DNA from: a virus
Reading direction: 5' to 3' (one strand)
Length of the DNA: 60,674 nucleotides
IMG/VR virus record: IMGVR_UViG_3300003792_000001
Numbering within the stretch: the first letter of the stretch is position 1; the number at the start of each line of letters is the position of its first letter. The notes under the pieces were generated by a model, which worked only from the letters and a program-made list of their open reading frames with translations, ran no database searches and was not told where the DNA came from. The translations under genes and the position numbers were made by a program. This document shows, piece by piece, positions 40,415 to 49,702 of this stretch.

Positions 40415-40981
40415 ATGCATGCGACCATAGGCGACAATTCCAATGCGCTGACGCCCGGCGAGGCCAAAGCGCTATACATGCACCACTTCAAACTGATCCA
40501 AGCGCAGACGGAAATCGTCAAAGCCGAAAATGCTGCAAGAAAAAAGCTGCGCAAAGAGGCCAAGGCAGACGGAATCGTTCTTGCCGACATTGATTTCGGC
40601 CTCCGGGTGGCAACGCTTGAAGACCCGATGATTGTGGTCGAGGAACAGCGCCGCCGGGCCGAGATCGGGCGCTACTTCGCGCTGCCCATCGGCGCGCAGA
40701 CCGAGCTTGATTTCGGGCGCGAGCCGCTCGTCGAACGCGCCGCCCGCGAGGGCGAGCGGGCTGGCTACGAAGCCAAGAACGCCGACACATGCCCCTATGA
40801 CGCGGCATCCGATGCGGGCCGGGTCTGGCTGGACCACTGGAAGCAGGCACAAGCGCAAATGCTCGCCGACTGGAAATCCGGCATGGATAAGAAGCAGGCA
40901 GAGCGCGCCAGCGCCGCCAATCCTGCCGCCGCCGACAATGGCGAGAACGATCCGCCCGAAGATGACGACGAGATCGCATAA
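40415..40981 (+). CDS. Hypothetical protein with a C-terminal Rmf/CrpP-like motif
   Basis: GERAGYEAKNADTCPYDAASDAGRVWLDHWKQAQ resembles the RMF/CrpP fold signature. Confidence 0.55.
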   Translation: MHATIGDNSNALTPGEAKALYMHHFKLIQAQTEIVKAENAARKKLRKEAKADGIVLADIDFGLRVATLEDPMIVVEEQRRRAEIGRYFALPIGAQTELDFGREPLVERAAREGERAGYEAKNADTCPYDAASDAGRVWLDHWKQAQAQMLADWKSGMDKKQAERASAANPAAADNGENDPPEDDDEIA

Positions 40982-40993
40982 GGAGGCGCCGCT

Positions 40994-41446
40994 ATGCCTT
41001 TCAGCGATGAGGACCGCAGCCGAATTGCCGGGATGATCGAGGCGGGATGGTCGCGGCGCAGGATCGCTGACGTGTTCGGGATGGGGCGTAATGCCTTCAT
41101 TGGAAAATTCCACCGCGACAAACAGCTAAGGGGCATAGCCCCGCCGCCGAAACCACCGGCGAAACCAAGGGAAAGGCGTTCGTCCGTGCCATCTGTGCCC
41201 ATCCTAAAGAAGCACAAATCCGCGCCGGAAGTGGTGCGCAAGGAGCCGCCGCCGCCGGTGCCAGAAATGCGCCGCGTGCCGCTGTTCGAATTGGAACGCG
41301 GAGAATGCAAATGGCCCGTCGAAATGGACAGCAAAGTCCCCGGCGGCCACTTGTTTTGCGGGGCGGCGACGAAAGACCTGCAAGGCTGGTGCCCTTATCA
41401 CGTATTCCGTGGCTATTCCCCGGCGCGCACGCGGGGTGCCTCATGA
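40994..41446 (+). CDS. gcrA: GcrA-like cell-cycle regulator homolog
   Basis: N-terminal HTH (GWSRRRIADVFGMGRNAFIGKFHR) and C-terminal CKWPV...FCG...GWCPYH are as in GcrA. Confidence 0.75.
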   Translation: MPFSDEDRSRIAGMIEAGWSRRRIADVFGMGRNAFIGKFHRDKQLRGIAPPPKPPAKPRERRSSVPSVPILKKHKSAPEVVRKEPPPPVPEMRRVPLFELERGECKWPVEMDSKVPGGHLFCGAATKDLQGWCPYHVFRGYSPARTRGAS

Positions 41447-41581: not shown

Positions 41582-41989
41582 ATGACACTGACCAACGATC
41601 ATATCGCCATCATCAAAGGCATGCTCCTGCGCGGCGATGACATCCACCATGTCGCGGCGCTCTTTGGCGAAAACGCCGGGCGCGTATCCGAGGTAAAAGC
41701 GGGCATTCCAGAATTTGCCGGGCCGCCCAAGCGCGGGAACGGCAAGCGCGTATTGCGGGGCGCGGAAGTGGCGCCTGCGCCGCCGGAGCGATTGCCGCCG
41801 CCGGGGCCATATTTTCTCAATCTGATTGCCGAGCGGGACATCGTACTTGATGGCCTGGAATCCGTCGAGGAGGCGGTCGCCTACTACGTCGATGCCTATA
41901 AGGGCGAAGCGGCGCGGGACATGCAGCGCCGCTATCACAACGCGCTCGCCGAGCGGAAACGCGAACTTTACAAAGGCAGGCTGAGATAA
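41582..41989 (+). CDS. Hypothetical protein (135 aa)
   Basis: ORF with the start set at MTLTNDH. Confidence 0.5.
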   Translation: MTLTNDHIAIIKGMLLRGDDIHHVAALFGENAGRVSEVKAGIPEFAGPPKRGNGKRVLRGAEVAPAPPERLPPPGPYFLNLIAERDIVLDGLESVEEAVAYYVDAYKGEAARDMQRRYHNALAERKRELYKGRLR

Positions 41990-43011
41990 TGACGACGGCT
42001 GATCTGGTCAAATACGATGCGGCCTGCCGCGCCATCGCCGAAGCCAAAAGCATCGATGAGGTCAAGGAAATCCGCGACGTCGCGATTGCGATGAAGGCCT
42101 ATGCCCGGCAAGCACAGAACAAGACGTTGGAGGCCGACGCCGCCGAAATTCGGATGCGGGCGACCAGGCGGCTTGATCAGATGCGGCAGGCGCAGAAGGA
42201 AACTGTCGGACTGGCGAAAGGCGGCCAGCCATATCAGGCTACCGGGTTATTAAAAAACCCAGTAGCACCCACGCTGGCCGAGGCCGGGATCAGCAAGAAC
42301 CTCGCCAATGAGGGGCGCAAGCTCGGCGCCTTGAGCGACGCCGAATTCGAGGTCGCGGTGGCGGAAACCCGCAAGGCCGTCACCAGCGCCACGAAAAATG
42401 TCATCAACAAAATGACCAAGGCGAGCGACCGGGCCGACCGCGAGGCCGCCCTTGGCGAAAAGATACGGGCATCCAAGGATCAGCTCGGACGCGCGGTGAA
42501 AACCTATGGCGTCATCCTCGCTGATCCGCCGTGGCAATTTGAGCCTTATAGCCGCGACACCGGCATGGACCGGGCGGCTGACAACCACTATCCGACGTCG
42601 CCCGTCAGCGAATTGTCCGACCTCAAGCCGCCGAGCGCGAATGATGCGGTGCTGTTCATGTGGGCGACCGTCCCGATGCTACCCGACGCGCTGGAACTGA
42701 TGGAGGCGTGGGGCTTCACTTATCGCTCGCACGTGATCTGGACCAAGGATCGATTGGGCACCGGCTATTGGGCGCGCAATAAGCACGAACTTCTGCTGAT
42801 CGGCACACAAGGGAACGTTCCGGCCCCGGCGCCGGGCCATCAGCCGGAGTCGGTGATCCTCGCCTCGCTTGGGCGCCATTCGGAAAAGCCGGAGGTGTTT
42901 TATGAAATCATCGAGACGATGTTTCCGAGCTTGCCGAAGTTGGAAATGTTCGCGCGTTCGGGGCGCCCTGGCTGGGATCATTGGGGCGCCGAAGCGCCGG
43001 AGGCCGCGTGA
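41989..43011 (+). CDS. MT-A70-family N6-adenine DNA methyltransferase
   Basis: VILADPPWQFEPYSRDTGMDRAADNHYPT (DPPW motif) plus a conserved C-terminal half (HSEKPEVFYEIIE). Confidence 0.85.
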   Translation: MTTADLVKYDAACRAIAEAKSIDEVKEIRDVAIAMKAYARQAQNKTLEADAAEIRMRATRRLDQMRQAQKETVGLAKGGQPYQATGLLKNPVAPTLAEAGISKNLANEGRKLGALSDAEFEVAVAETRKAVTSATKNVINKMTKASDRADREAALGEKIRASKDQLGRAVKTYGVILADPPWQFEPYSRDTGMDRAADNHYPTSPVSELSDLKPPSANDAVLFMWATVPMLPDALELMEAWGFTYRSHVIWTKDRLGTGYWARNKHELLLIGTQGNVPAPAPGHQPESVILASLGRHSEKPEVFYEIIETMFPSLPKLEMFARSGRPGWDHWGAEAPEAA

Positions 43012-43586: not shown

Positions 43587-43828
43587 TGGAAACCCGCAAT
43601 ATCGGTCAAAGGCTGATCCGAAGCGAGCAATTCCTGCTGGGGTGGCTGAGCGCCGCCGACGATAGCGCGCTGGGCGAATGCCATGGCGGGACGCTGGACG
43701 CGCTTGTCGCGCACGGCCTCGTCGAGATCGGGCCGACGCCGCCGGGCAAAGACCGCTTCTATAGCCGCGTGCGGCTCACAAAAACCGGGTGGGAGGTGCT
43801 GGCATGGCTGAGCAGCAGCTCGTCCTAA
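43583..43828 (+). CDS. Hypothetical protein (81 aa)
   Basis: ATGA-coupled ORF. Confidence 0.5.
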   Translation: MMETRNIGQRLIRSEQFLLGWLSAADDSALGECHGGTLDALVAHGLVEIGPTPPGKDRFYSRVRLTKTGWEVLAWLSSSSS

Positions 43829-44502
43829 GCCTTTTCCCCGGCATCGGCCTGCTCGACATGGCATTCGAGGAGGCCGGATTTTGCGTGGTGCGTGGCCCGG
43901 ACCTTCTATGGGGTGGCGATATCCATAAATTCTTTCCGCCGCCGGGCCGCTTTGACGGCGTGATCGGCGGGCCGCCCTGTCAGAAATTCAGCACGGCGGG
44001 CAACATCGTCGGCACCAGCGCAGTCGATCTGATCCCCGAATTTATGCGCGTGGTCGAGGCCGTGCAGCCCCGGTGGATCGTCATGGAGAATGTGCCGCAG
44101 GCTATCGGCCACCCGGCAATCCCGCGCGACTGGTTTCATTTCAAACTGCGCGATTACGATTGCGGCGGCGAGACGTCGCGGGTCCGGGCTTTCTGGACAT
44201 GGCCGTTCATGGCGCTTGTGGCGCCGCGCGCCAATGGCGAGGCCGCGCACTCGGTCATGGCAAGCACCTTCAAGCGTGGCGCCGGGCAATATGCCAAGGA
44301 CAAGGGCTTCTTGCCTGGCAATCTCCCTATTGCCGAATATGCGCGGCTCCAGGGCGTGCCGGAAATCGGCGAGCGCCTCGTCCAATTCAAGTCGTCGCGG
44401 GCTTTCGCAATCCACGTGCTCGGCAACGGCGTGCCGCTTGCCATGGGCCGGGCGGTCGCCAAGACGGTCCGTCAATGCTTGCAAGCGGAGGTGGCAGCGT
44501 GA
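43804..44502 (+). CDS. Compact DNA (cytosine-5) methyltransferase
   Basis: Motif I LFPGIGLLD, motif IV GGPPCQKFS, motif VI MENVP, motif X GNGVPLAMG. Confidence 0.85.
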   Translation: MAEQQLVLSLFPGIGLLDMAFEEAGFCVVRGPDLLWGGDIHKFFPPPGRFDGVIGGPPCQKFSTAGNIVGTSAVDLIPEFMRVVEAVQPRWIVMENVPQAIGHPAIPRDWFHFKLRDYDCGGETSRVRAFWTWPFMALVAPRANGEAAHSVMASTFKRGAGQYAKDKGFLPGNLPIAEYARLQGVPEIGERLVQFKSSRAFAIHVLGNGVPLAMGRAVAKTVRQCLQAEVAA

Positions 44503-45094: not shown

Positions 45095-45388
45095 ATGATT
45101 ATCAAGCCCACCCTCATCGCCTTTTGCCTGTTGAGCCCCAGCGCTATCGCCCATGAGGCGCCCAGCGGCTGGTCCTATCCATTCAATTGTTGCAGCAATC
45201 AGGATTGCCGGGAGGTCGCCGACGTGCCGGAAATGGCGGACGGCTACCACGCCAGCAATGGCGAGACGATCCCCTATAGCGACCCGCGTATCAAGGAAAG
45301 CCCGGACGGCAAATTCCACCTTTGCACCGTCGCCGGGCAAGCGCAAAGCCGCGCCCTTTGCCTGTTTGTCCCGCCAAGGAGCTTTTAA
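45095..45388 (+). CDS. Secreted Cys-rich small protein
   Basis: Signal peptide MIIKPTLIAFCLLSPSAIAHE, then WSYPFNCCSNQDCREV...HLCTV...ALCLF. Confidence 0.6.
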   Translation: MIIKPTLIAFCLLSPSAIAHEAPSGWSYPFNCCSNQDCREVADVPEMADGYHASNGETIPYSDPRIKESPDGKFHLCTVAGQAQSRALCLFVPPRSF

Positions 45389-45390
45389 AA

Positions 45391-46182
45391 ATGACGGTCA
45401 AGCTGCGGGTCATATCGCTCGGTGCAGGCGTCCAGTCGACCACAATGGCGCTGATGGCTGCGCATGGCGAAATCGGGCCCATGCCTGATTGCGCGATATT
45501 CGCCGATACCGGGTGGGAGCCAAAGGCGGTCTATCAGCACCTTGAATGGCTGCGCTCGCCCAATGTGCTGCCGTTCCCGGTGCATATCGTCAGCAAGGGC
45601 GATCTCAGGGCCGACTCGCTGGCGCGCCGCAATACGGACGGCAAGCGGCACGCCTCGGTGCCATGGTTCCTGCGGATGCCGAACGGCGCCGAGGGCATGG
45701 GGCGGCGGCAATGCACGAATGAATACAAGCTCAAGCCGATCACCCGGCAGATCAAGGAATTGCTCGGCGGGCGGCCCAAGGGCGGCGCCGAGGTCTGGAT
45801 CGGTATCTCCACCGACGAGGCGATGCGGGTAAAGCCCGCCCGCGTTCAATATATGATCAATCGCCACCCGCTGATCGAAATGCGGATGAACCGCCTCGAT
45901 TGCCTCGCGTGGCTGGATCGGCACGGCTACCCGATGCCGCCGAAATCCTCCTGCATCGGATGCCCCTATCATAGCGCCGCGCATTGGCGCGCCATGGGCG
46001 CCGACGAACTTGCCGATGCCATCGAGGTAGACGAGGCGATCCGCAATCAGGCGGGCATGAAGGGGCAGCAATTCATGCACCGCTCGCGCCGCCCGCTGAG
46101 CGAGGTCGATCTGTCCACGGACGAGGATCGCGGCCAATTGAACCTCTTCATCAATGAATGTGAGGGGATGTGCGGCGTATGA
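45391..46182 (+). CDS. PAPS reductase-family (PP-loop) protein
   Basis: VISLGAGVQSTTMALMAAHGEI...CAIFADTGWEP and C-terminal SCIGCPYHS are typical of phage PAPS-reductase-like proteins. Confidence 0.75.
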   Translation: MTVKLRVISLGAGVQSTTMALMAAHGEIGPMPDCAIFADTGWEPKAVYQHLEWLRSPNVLPFPVHIVSKGDLRADSLARRNTDGKRHASVPWFLRMPNGAEGMGRRQCTNEYKLKPITRQIKELLGGRPKGGAEVWIGISTDEAMRVKPARVQYMINRHPLIEMRMNRLDCLAWLDRHGYPMPPKSSCIGCPYHSAAHWRAMGADELADAIEVDEAIRNQAGMKGQQFMHRSRRPLSEVDLSTDEDRGQLNLFINECEGMCGV

Positions 46183-47452: not shown

Positions 47453-47743
47453 ATGCACACGAAGGATTTTCTCGCCGGAGAGCTGGAAAAAGCCGGATTG
47501 CCGGCGATGGCCGAAAAGGCTCGGAAAGGCCTCTACCACGATTATCTGTCCCCGCTGGATTTCCCCGAAATGGAACTCGACCGCGATCTGGTCGAAGCGA
47601 TCAAAGCGGGCAACGAAGCGGCGGCGGCCTTGCGGGCGCGGCACCACGAAGGCGAATTCGACGCCTCCATGGAGGAAAGCGACGAGTGGGCCCAAAGCCC
47701 CGAAGGGCGGGCGGCATTGGGCGGATTGCTGGGCAAAAAATGA
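47453..47743 (+). CDS. Hypothetical protein (96 aa)
   Basis: ORF ATGA-coupled to the DpdA-like gene. Confidence 0.5.
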   Translation: MHTKDFLAGELEKAGLPAMAEKARKGLYHDYLSPLDFPEMELDRDLVEAIKAGNEAAAALRARHHEGEFDASMEESDEWAQSPEGRAALGGLLGKK

Positions 47744-48426
47744 TCCACTATCACGGCACACCGCTGACACCGCGCTCGGAACTCCTGAAAATGGCGGGGA
47801 AGCATTTTTGCGTATCCTTTGCCGCGCCGCAGGATGCCGACTGGTGCATGGCCCACGGACAATCGGTCATGTGGGATAGCGGCGCTTTCAGCTCATTCAC
47901 GAAGGGCGATGCCGTCGACTGGGAAAAATACTTCACGTGGCTTCGGGCGCGCTTGGCGCACCCGCATTGGGCGGTGATCCCCGACGCTATCGGCGGCGAC
48001 GTCGATGAGCAAAGGGCGCTCGTCGCCCGATGGCCATTCTCGCGGCGCTTGGGCGCCCCGGTATGGCATATGGCCCTGCCTATCGACTACTTGCTTGAGC
48101 TTGCCGGGGAATGGCCGCGCGTTTGCTTCGGCAGTTCGGCGCAATACTGGCAAGTGGGCTCGGATGCATGGTGCCGCCGATGCGACGAGGCATTCAATGC
48201 GCTTGCCCAGCGCGGCCTTTCGGATTGCTGGATTCACATGCTGCGGGGCTTGGTCCTCGCCGGAGACAAATGGCCCTTTGCATCGGGCGACAGCACCAAC
48301 GTCGCCCAAAATTTCGAACGAAACCGCATATGCCCGGAGCGAATGGCGCGGCGCCTGGACGCCGTGCAATGCCCGCTTTTCTGGACGCCGCGCCCGCAAC
48401 AGAAGGATATGTTCAATGTGGCTTAA
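47740..48426 (+). CDS. dpdA: DpdA-like DNA (7-deazaguanine) transglycosylase candidate
   Basis: VMWDSGAFSSF (compare the MDSGAF motif of DpdA/TGT), IHMLRGL (HGFG-like position) and ASGDSTNVAQN (compare the DSMAW position). Followed by a YhhQ-like transporter gene. Confidence 0.55.
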   Translation: MIHYHGTPLTPRSELLKMAGKHFCVSFAAPQDADWCMAHGQSVMWDSGAFSSFTKGDAVDWEKYFTWLRARLAHPHWAVIPDAIGGDVDEQRALVARWPFSRRLGAPVWHMALPIDYLLELAGEWPRVCFGSSAQYWQVGSDAWCRRCDEAFNALAQRGLSDCWIHMLRGLVLAGDKWPFASGDSTNVAQNFERNRICPERMARRLDAVQCPLFWTPRPQQKDMFNVA

Positions 48427-48943
48427 AACCTCGGCACTGATTGCCGCCTTTGCGGCGACGATCCCGGCGGCAAACTGGCTTATCGGCCACGCCGGATCGC
48501 ATTGTATCGAAGGCGGGCCGTGCCTGATCCCGGTCGGCTTCGGCCTCTATGCGCCATCCGGCGTGCTGATGATCGGCGCGGCGCTCGTCCTTCGTGATCT
48601 AATTCAGGAGGCAGGCGGCCTGCGGGCGGCGCTGGCGGCCATCGGCATCGGGGCGGCCCTGTCATGGCTGATTGCCCCTCCCGCGCTTGTAGCGGCCTCT
48701 GTGGCCGCTTTCCTGCTGGCCGAATTGGCTGACCTTGCGGTCTATACGCCGTTGCGGCGGCGGCAGCTGGGTCTGGCGGTGCTCGCAAGCGGCATGGTTG
48801 GCGCGATCATCGATAGCGCGGTGTTCCTTTGGCTGGCGTTCGGATCGCTGCAATTCATCGAGGGGCAAATCATCGGCAAGGCATGGATGAGCGCGGCGGC
48901 ATCCGTCGCGATAACCTTTCACAAGCAATGGAGGACGGCATGA
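48416..48943 (+). CDS. yhhQ: VUT/YhhQ-family (queuosine-precursor transporter-like) membrane protein
   Basis: ASVAAFLLAELADLAVYTPLRRRQLGLAVLASGMVGAIIDSAVFLWLAFG parallels E. coli YhhQ ASFMAYALGQILDVHVFNRLRQ...STLFGNVSDTLAFFFIAF. The 48005-48415 part of the tracked ORF is rejected. Confidence 0.7.
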   Translation: MWLKTSALIAAFAATIPAANWLIGHAGSHCIEGGPCLIPVGFGLYAPSGVLMIGAALVLRDLIQEAGGLRAALAAIGIGAALSWLIAPPALVAASVAAFLLAELADLAVYTPLRRRQLGLAVLASGMVGAIIDSAVFLWLAFGSLQFIEGQIIGKAWMSAAASVAITFHKQWRTA

Positions 48944-49377
48944 CTTACGCTTGGAAGATCAACCACCCGTCGAACCCGGTATTCTCGGCCACTTGGTTCA
49001 TCAATGCCCCATGGGCGCACCCGCTGTGGCAGCAATACTTGCTGGCGCTCTATGATCTGACCACGCCGACGACCAAGCCGCCGACGCTGCATCTGCGGGA
49101 TGCCACGCACGAATTCATGCTCTATGCGCTCGATCCTGAGCACCCGATTGCCAAGGATGCGATTGTGCAGCCGGAACAGGTCTACAAGTTGAGCCCGCCG
49201 AATTTCGCCTACCAGTTCAAGGCCAAGAGCAACGCCGAGGCCGAGGAGCGGATACAGGCGGTGGTCGATGGCATCGTAGCGCGGCAGATCAGCCCGGACA
49301 CGGATGCGCGATCCTTCTGGAATAACGGGCTATTCCCCGACGCCTATGCGCTGGTCAAATCCGCGTTCGCGGGCTGA
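48940..49377 (+). CDS. Hypothetical protein (145 aa) coupled to the YhhQ-like gene
   Basis: ATGA overlap. No motif recognised. Confidence 0.55.
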   Translation: MTYAWKINHPSNPVFSATWFINAPWAHPLWQQYLLALYDLTTPTTKPPTLHLRDATHEFMLYALDPEHPIAKDAIVQPEQVYKLSPPNFAYQFKAKSNAEAEERIQAVVDGIVARQISPDTDARSFWNNGLFPDAYALVKSAFAG

Positions 49378-49391
49378 GCCCCGGCAAGCAA

Positions 49392-49428
49392 AAAGCCCGC
49401 GCCGGTGCTTGGTCCCGACGCGGGCTTT
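49392..49428. terminator. Hairpin between convergent operons (bidirectional terminator candidate)
   Basis: aaagcccgcg (49392-49401) pairs with cgcgggcttt (49419-49428). Confidence 0.55.
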
Positions 49429-49477: not shown

Positions 49478-49702
49478 CTATTTTGCAGCCGCGTTCAGCC
49501 GCCGGATTACGTCGGCCAGCAGCGCCATCCGCTCCTCGCAAATGCGCTGCAAATCCGCCGCCATCCCCGGTGATAGATCGGCGGCGCCGGAGGCCAACCG
49601 GCGAACGTGCCGGTCGGACATATCGAGATCGCGGGCGATGTCGGACTGCCAACGGGGCCCATAAAGGGCCTCGCCAGCTTCGTGAAGGATTTTAGAGGTC
49701 AA
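49478..49702 (-). CDS. Hypothetical protein (74 aa)
   Basis: ORF directly after 49705..49905. Confidence 0.5.
   Translation of the reverse strand: MTSKILHEAGEALYGPRWQSDIARDLDMSDRHVRRLASGAADLSPGMAADLQRICEERMALLADVIRRLNAAAK

Follow-up and report, generated by a model that had tools for sequence, protein, structure and literature searches.

Do three overlapping genes that close the early operon of a temperate siphovirus make up one module for marking phage DNA with 7-deazaguanine, and if not, which of them belong together? The genes lie at 47740-49377 of the IMG/VR virus record IMGVR_UViG_3300003792_000001, a stretch of 60,674 nucleotides (nt) that is called the window here. An earlier note on this DNA had proposed a salvage-only system consisting of a DpdA-like transglycosylase, a YhhQ-like precursor transporter and an unrecognised third partner. 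We found that the first two genes are a tightly linked, functionally linked pair; by sequence comparison the first encodes a genuine remote DpdA homologue and the second a putative importer of 7-deazaguanine precursors, while the third appears to be an unrelated backbone gene at the edge of the slot that holds the pair. The three genes are:

47740-48426, plus strand: gene 1, predicted DpdA-family transglycosylase of the singleton subgroup, resembling tRNA-guanine transglycosylase (TGT); 228 amino acids (aa), starting MIHYHGTPL, with WDSGAF at residues 45-50
48416-48943, plus strand: gene 2, predicted short YhhQ/QPTR-like (Vut_1/COG1738) membrane protein; 175 aa, starting MWLKT
48940-49377, plus strand: gene 3, conserved phage protein, function unassigned; 145 aa, starting MTYAWK

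The three open reading frames (ORFs), with an overlap of 11 nt between genes 1 and 2 (48416-48426) and an ATGA overlap between genes 2 and 3 (48940-48943), were confirmed as the earlier note had described them, both in the sequence and by independent gene calls on identical metagenomic contigs, which yield the same products of 228, 175 and 145 aa. The stop of the gene upstream likewise overlaps the start of gene 1 by ATGA (47740-47743). Across the 20.7 kb around the module, overlaps were found at 25 of 46 same-strand junctions, 14 of the 25 being 4 nt long. Thus the overlaps, being common in the surrounding DNA, provide no evidence for a three-gene unit.

The DpdA-like and YhhQ-like genes

On sequence evidence gene 1 is of the type found in Salmonella phage 7-11, which Hutinet 2019 places among the “singleton DpdA” proteins. 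Its product matches PHROG 887 (phrog_887, “queuine tRNA-ribosyltransferase”) at E 6e-43, and tblastn with gene 1 against phage records matched 105 genomes, reaching E 1e-20 to 1e-33 for proteins of phages 7-11, SPN3UB, BTP1, SEN1, SE131 and PEAT2 (Pectobacterium), all of which are listed in Hutinet 2019 as DpdA, in the DpdA-only group. Homologues are widespread: they occur on at least 586 IMG/VR contigs, and a whole-library search with gene 1 returned 589 representative clusters at 50% identity.

Alignment of gene 1 with 57 diverse representatives (58 sequences, 30-61% identity) revealed five invariant positions (D82, H110, G131, H166 and D184) and three nearly invariant ones (D46, G48 and A49; D46 is kept in at least 90% of the 58 sequences). 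Gene 1 also has F50, the stacking Phe of DSGxF, which is at least 90% conserved in the 41 close homologues. The candidate active-site residues are D46 (in DSGAF), D82, H110, G131, H166 and D184. In hhalign, the profile of the 58 sequences matched the family of CAjan DpdA1, an enzyme whose deletion abolishes the preQ0 deoxynucleoside dPreQ0 (PMC6884629, PMC7544227), at 98.9% (E 1.2e-17 over 186 columns), and a lower-diversity gene 1 profile matched the single CAjan DpdA sequence at 87% (E 4e-6). The paired residues were D46/D63 (DSGAF), H110/H132, G131/G153, H166/H187 and D184/D206, with D82 falling within 3 columns of CAjan D105. Moreover the order and spacing of the gene 1 motifs parallel the active-site residues D95, F99, D130, H181, G206 and D256 of bDpdA (Salmonella Montevideo Dpd system, PMC10164549), an apparent equivalence that was judged from motif order and not from structural superposition. 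Thus the DpdA/TGT-like character that the earlier note had seen in the first protein was borne out by the phrog_887 match, tblastn, the alignment to CAjan DpdA1 and the conserved catalytic positions. Neither gene 1 itself nor two profiles built on it had a meaningful match in PDB sequence searches, and PADLOC gave no match for gene 1, gene 2 or gene 3.

A separate feature of gene 1 is a conserved CPERMARRxDAVQCP motif within residues 193-216 (about 48316-48387), a stretch that is poorly modelled, with predicted local distance difference test (pLDDT) values below 50. Its weak likeness to E. coli ECs2156 (PDB 2kkx, E ~0.5) is probably chance.

Gene 2 appears, from its family matches, to encode a short and divergent Vut_1/COG1738 (YhhQ) membrane protein. 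It scored 44.2 bits against Pfam PF02592 Vut_1 (gathering cut-off 27.2; profile positions 66-136 of 152), precomputed Pfam on the identical contigs also assigns Vut_1 to it, and phrog_4899 was matched at E 5e-41. Its identity is 40% over 92 residues with CAjan gp41 (“putative preQ0 transporter”) and 28% over 90 residues with E. coli YhhQ; the gene 2 family profile aligned with E. coli YhhQ in hhalign at 88% (E 3e-6). By Kyte-Doolittle hydropathy, which is crude and not a topology predictor, the protein has about five to six hydrophobic segments (about residues 6-24, 35-60, 68-88, 89-111, 118-148 and possibly 150-170). PDB sequence search with gene 2 found nothing meaningful, and its scores were under both NCBIfam equivalog cut-offs: 40.3 vs 50.95 for TIGR00697, and 22.4 vs 252 for NF008406 (PRK11212). 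The earlier statement that the second protein clearly resembles E. coli YhhQ therefore stands as to family membership, on the Vut_1 and hhalign matches, but “clearly” is too much for a resemblance of this length and identity that stays below the equivalog cut-offs.

Linkage of the two genes was surveyed in the best 80 of at least 586 IMG/VR loci with a gene 1 homologue, via iterative hidden Markov model search of their ORFs. A YhhQ-like gene stood beside the gene 1 homologue in 71 of the 80 viral loci and on the same strand in all of them: downstream of DpdA in 36 loci (abutting in 31) and upstream in 35 (abutting in 23). The corresponding count of DpdA or YhhQ-like genes in control phage loci was 0 of 64 (Fisher p 1.6e-31 vs 71/80). 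Phage genomes show several arrangements: i) RHph_N3_2 has a DpdA-like gene and then DUF165; ii) RHph_X2_30 has DUF165, two small genes and then a DpdA-like gene; iii) Pam5 has a “transglycosylase”, a small gene and then a “VUT family protein”; iv) Sinorhizobium phage phiLM21 (L003, 3153-4504) has a PF23859-type DpdA together with a YhhQ-like protein 71% identical to gene 2. Because the phiLM21 DpdA differs from the gene 1 subfamily, one transporter subfamily has two DpdA partners. The permease thus stays with DpdA in either gene order and with either DpdA subfamily, and this constancy speaks for a functional tie to the 7-deazaguanine pathway.

A PAPS-reductase/SspD-like gene was considered as a further regular partner and rejected, since just 5 of the 80 DpdA loci contain one and relatives without DpdA have it too. 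A gene of this family was seen between the DpdA-like and YhhQ-like genes in L156 (2220-3119) and directly after the DpdA-like gene in L105 (1644-2507). A different partial-pathway combination was observed in Caulobacter phage DMCA (L148, 5705-6726), in which a gene 1 homologue (44% identity) comes directly after a 98-aa PTPS/QueD-like gene and no YhhQ is annotated nearby.

The third gene and the probable insertion slot

Comparison of related loci indicates that gene 3 is not part of the DpdA-YhhQ module; it appears to be an unrelated conserved backbone gene that forms the right flank of a slot, with the gene upstream of gene 1 as the apparent left flank, likewise outside the module. The features that bound the three genes are:

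47453-47743, plus strand: upstream backbone gene, 96 aa on identical contigs; a longer ORF runs from 47408
49392-49428, no strand assigned: GC-rich hairpin 3' of gene 3, RNA fold -23.4 kcal/mol

The survey of gene 3 covered 64 homologue loci (genomes, viral contigs and phage RHph_TM16) with about 5 kb around each, tested for three DpdA subfamilies. Neither a DpdA of any of the three subfamilies nor a YhhQ-like gene was found within about 5 kb in any of the 64, and none of the 80 DpdA loci contained a gene 3 homologue. No neighbour of gene 3 was conserved in more than 10 of the 64 loci. The two families differ in abundance as well, the protein search giving ~29 clusters for gene 3 vs 2785 for gene 1. 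Thus the third gene could not be upheld as a partner in the module, and the synteny survey placed the triad solely in the window lineage and the related contig L156.

The flanks, on the other hand, recur together. A homologue of the upstream gene stands directly before the gene 3 homologue in L017, L018, L019, L022, L035 and L052, and in L004 (1427-2155) the two are fused into one protein of 242 aa. An HNH-endonuclease-like ORF (119 aa) fills the slot in L016 (4601-4960) and L157 (4652-5011), both of them close relatives without the cassette; since it occupies the same position, the slot can be regarded as an accessory-gene hot-spot. Most simply, these arrangements are explained by two backbone genes bounding a variable slot, into which the DpdA-YhhQ pair was inserted. 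Synteny is the evidence for this insertion, because GC content and GC content at third codon positions match between cassette and flanks, with no compositional sign of recent insertion.

The gene 3 product itself is, as the earlier note had it, recognisable as nothing: no match was found in Pfam, PHROGs, NCBIfam or PADLOC, and PDB sequence search likewise found nothing meaningful. Its AlphaFold2 model is confident (pLDDT 93.8) and consists of five strands and two helices, for which Foldseek found no PDB match (best E 0.42) and, in BFVD, only its own unannotated homologues. The family keeps H27, H57, E58, D120 and D122 invariant, and the protein may be a small enzyme.

As for the genome at large, the window is that of a temperate siphovirus. 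It encodes a large terminase, a fused protease and major head protein, portal, tape measure and tail proteins, as well as integrase, RecT and exonuclease; no tRNA genes were found in it. A rightward early operon begins after a Cro-like gene and is closed by genes 1, 2 and 3. The hairpin at 49392-49428 faces a convergent minus-strand gene at 49478-49702 and is likely the terminator of this operon; the junction of gene 3 with the convergent gene is kept in L016 as well. The operon also encodes:

about 40930-41380, plus strand: GcrA-like regulator
41989-43011, plus strand: MT-A70 adenine methyltransferase
43789-44502, plus strand: C5 cytosine methyltransferase
45388-46182, plus strand: PAPS-reductase/DndC/SspD-like PP-loop gene (phrog_424; PADLOC SspD, 35 bits), 1.5 kb upstream of the DpdA gene

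Because the MT-A70 and C5 methyltransferases and the GcrA-like regulator share the early operon with gene 1, several DNA-modification functions appear to be stacked in this phage.

Proposed mechanism and rival explanations

What would the pair do? We put at roughly 60% the probability that gene 1 exchanges selected guanines of phage DNA for a free 7-deazaguanine while gene 2 raises the supply of that base. Gene 1 would be a minimal DpdA-family TIM-barrel transglycosylase that acts on replicated phage DNA and flips certain guanines out; the covalent intermediate would be formed by D184, with D46 as acid/base, as in the double displacement of TGT/DpdA enzymes, and the free 7-deazaguanine base would take the place of the guanine. 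Gene 2 would be a short inner-membrane permease of YhhQ/QPTR type taking up the base from the environment, be it preQ0, preQ1 or a relative, so that the imported base would add to the host-made supply. The purpose would be to shield phage DNA from restriction. The comparisons themselves show homology, conserved catalytic positions, membrane character, close gene linkage and a synteny that resembles insertion; that DNA is the substrate, which base is used, that transport runs inward and that the pair counters restriction are the parts of this mechanism that we infer.

The source of the base was addressed by several searches. Phmmer with FolE, QueD, QueE and QueC of CAjan and with QueD of DMCA gave no match in any window ORF of 40 aa or more, precomputed Pfam for the called genes at about 37.7-58.4 kb showed no preQ0 synthesis genes, and the ten largest ORFs scanned elsewhere in the window were mostly structural, integration or recombination genes. 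The absence of FolE, QueD, QueE and QueC therefore holds in the phmmer and precomputed Pfam searches. The salvage-only dependence that the earlier note had drawn from it is too strong. The likely hosts (Rhizobiales) encode the full de novo queuosine pathway, as the Rhizobium etli rows of Hutinet 2019 Supplementary Data 3 show, and preQ0 or preQ1 made by the host is therefore an equally plausible source. CAjan synthesis mutants, too, still incorporate some host-made preQ0.

Several observations weigh against base exchange in DNA with imported precursor: i) Pfam (E up to 1; including TGT PF01702 and DpdA PF23859) and NCBIfam left gene 1 unmatched; the phiLM21 DpdA matches PF23859, but the validated CAjan DpdA1 is also without a Pfam match, and because Pfam misses it too, the silence of curated models on gene 1 is not evidence against membership; ii) the AlphaFold2 model of gene 1, of alternating strands and helices, has a moderate pLDDT of 77.8 and is poor over the last 50 C-terminal residues; iii) Foldseek against PDB gave weak matches to generic TIM barrels (transaldolase, TrpA and ribulose-phosphate epimerase; E ~0.02, TM-score 0.3-0.47), and TGT/DpdA chains were absent from the top 50; iv) no Cys/His cluster, and no Cys at all, is conserved in the 58-sequence alignment as a zinc site, and the chain ends about 44 residues past the nucleophile Asp; v) the loop for the 7-substituent (residues 131-134, about 48130-48141) reads G-S-S-G/A throughout the gene 1 subfamily and GGMV in bDpdA and CAjan DpdA1, so that the gene 1 substrate may not be preQ0; vi) phage 7-11 of Salmonella, the single member of gene 1's DpdA subgroup with a measurement, had only ~50 2'-deoxy-7-amido-7-deazaguanosine (dADG) per 10^6 nt, and Orion, with a Mycobacterium singleton DpdA of a different cluster, had no DNA modification; vii) deletion of the yhhQ homologue of CAjan left modification unchanged, and import by the short phage form is putative; viii) in L156 a gene 3 homologue directly follows a run of DpdA-like, PAPS-reductase-like and YhhQ-like genes. 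As to fold, the predicted structure is consistent with a TGT-like TIM barrel but not specific to it; the structural check on the 228-aa protein thus agreed in barrel-like character and failed to recover a TGT or DpdA. As to L156, co-occurrence of gene 3 and the cassette was found only there and in the window lineage, which fits inheritance of the insertion within one clade; a lineage-specific link of gene 3 would be unlikely.

Such points feed the explanation, unlikely yet one to be taken seriously, that gene 1 has diverged, for example to exchange some other base or to act as a DNA glycosylase, and that gene 2 transports that other small molecule. The pocket loop is GSSG/A instead of the GGMV of preQ0-specific DpdAs, and phage 7-11 carried dADG rather than preQ0. 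On the transporter side, COG1738 substrates vary (preQ0/preQ1 in E. coli, queuine in Chlamydia; PMC11130926), Vut_1 stands for “vitamin uptake transporter”, and gene 2 falls short of both NCBIfam queuosine-precursor transporter cut-offs. Yet gene 1 has lost none of the three catalytic Asp, nor the Phe of DSGxF that stacks on the base, the same YhhQ-like subfamily accompanies a canonical PF23859 DpdA in phiLM21 and sits in the preQ0 cluster of CAjan, and a gene 1 homologue abuts QueD in DMCA. We consider it improbable that the pair spares DNA and acts on RNA or the queuosine economy of the host, for example through precursor import and tRNA base exchange that tune translation. DpdA did descend from tRNA-guanine transglycosylases, Hutinet 2019 raises boosted queuosine in tRNA for phages with pathway genes and notes possible functional divergence of singleton DpdAs, and the DNA of phage 7-11 is modified only very sparsely; but the 228 aa of gene 1 make up a bare barrel with neither an extra RNA-binding domain nor a zinc subdomain, the gene lies among DNA methyltransferases in the DNA-metabolism/early region, CAjan DpdA1, the closest relative that has been validated, works on DNA (PMC7544227), and the hosts of this clade own a TGT already.

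The three-gene module, in which the 145-aa protein would tailor the base, pick targets or regulate DpdA and YhhQ, is very improbable. It could draw on the ATGA overlap of gene 3 with gene 2, the shared operon ending in a hairpin, the diverged contig L156 with its gene 3 homologue right after YhhQ, and the invariant His, Glu and Asp residues of gene 3, which could form an active site. Against this stand the mutual absence in the two surveys (0/64 and 0/80), the abutment or fusion of gene 3 to the upstream backbone gene in relatives without the cassette, the HNH gene that occupies the slot in L016 and L157, the disparity in cluster numbers, and gene overlaps that are the norm in this genome. Discarding gene 3 removes a false lead, as it has no place in the annotation of deazaguanine systems.

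For base exchange in DNA with precursor import, the near-constant link to a permease leads to the hypothesis that precursor supply limits modification, so that feeding preQ0 or preQ1 should raise it. The cultured rhizobial carriers of the pair, RHph_N3_2, RHph_X2_30 and phiLM21, are tractable systems. More tentatively, singleton DpdA and short YhhQ could together make a self-contained “import and swap” cassette that moves horizontally and marks DNA with a scavenged 7-deazapurine. If so, temperate phages of Alphaproteobacteria and marine bacteria would mark their DNA with a 7-deazapurine scavenged from the environment, and the GSSG/A loop hints that the base might be something other than preQ0, such as preQ1, queuine or a derivative yet to be described. 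Separately, the 145-aa neighbour may be a small enzyme whose fold is undescribed.

Comparison with known systems

Gene 1 shares with bDpdA and the TGTs the order and spacing of Asp, Asp, His, Gly loop and Asp, as well as a predicted alternating beta/alpha barrel. It differs from them in being ~190 residues shorter, in having no conserved zinc site and in having no Pfam TGT/DpdA match, and unlike the bacterial Dpd system it has no DpdB ATPase partner or restriction genes nearby. Gene 2 shares its Pfam family, a homologous core and multi-pass character with E. coli YhhQ/QPTR, the preQ0/preQ1 importer; it differs in length (175 vs 221 aa) and by a ~20-residue deletion in the aligned core, and transport by the phage form is putative.

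The CAjan cluster (DpdA1 gp35, YhhQ-like gp41 and FolE/QueD/QueE/QueC) contains homologues of both members of the window pair, a DpdA and a short YhhQ-like protein, and as in the window both lie in one DNA-modification locus. On the other hand, CAjan makes its own preQ0, has ~32% of G replaced and can dispense with yhhQ. Its DpdA (306 aa, GGMV loop) is also longer than gene 1 (228 aa) and differs from it in the loop, which in gene 1 reads GSS(G/A).

Phage phiLM21 (p025/p026) is a rhizobial temperate phage with the same order of DpdA followed by YhhQ-like gene and no synthesis genes, and it is listed with DpdA and YhhQ only in Hutinet 2019 Supplementary Data 1. Its DpdA (274 aa; PF23859 at 148.7 bits; phrog_1279) differs from gene 1, with which it gave no significant match in BLASTP or in profile-vs-single-sequence comparison. 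The window thus carries a DpdA and YhhQ cassette of a type already catalogued in phages: Hutinet 2019 already holds DpdA-only phage genomes and phage-encoded YhhQ, and yhhQ inside dpd clusters was noted in 2016. The novelty that the earlier note had seen in a transporter-linked system is weakened accordingly, since phiLM21 already has DpdA and YhhQ only, and with so close a relative of gene 2.

With the singleton DpdA group (7-11, SPN3UB, BTP1 and SEN1), gene 1 is homologous at 33-36% identity (E 1e-20 to 1e-31) and has PHROG 887 in common; these phages lack preQ0 or G+ synthesis genes, as does the window, and carry DpdA, like the window, among early/accessory genes of temperate phages. The window clade, of Alphaproteobacteria and marine and soil viral contigs, differs in its adjacent YhhQ-like gene (71 of the 80 loci), whereas Hutinet 2019 saw YhhQ correlate with none of the phage groups. 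In this subgroup the DpdA-YhhQ pairing is near-obligate, a modest new comparative result of which we found no description in the literature searched. DpdA-only phages were the largest group in the 2019 survey, and in one large DpdA subgroup the enzyme is nearly always joined to a YhhQ-type permease, in either order.

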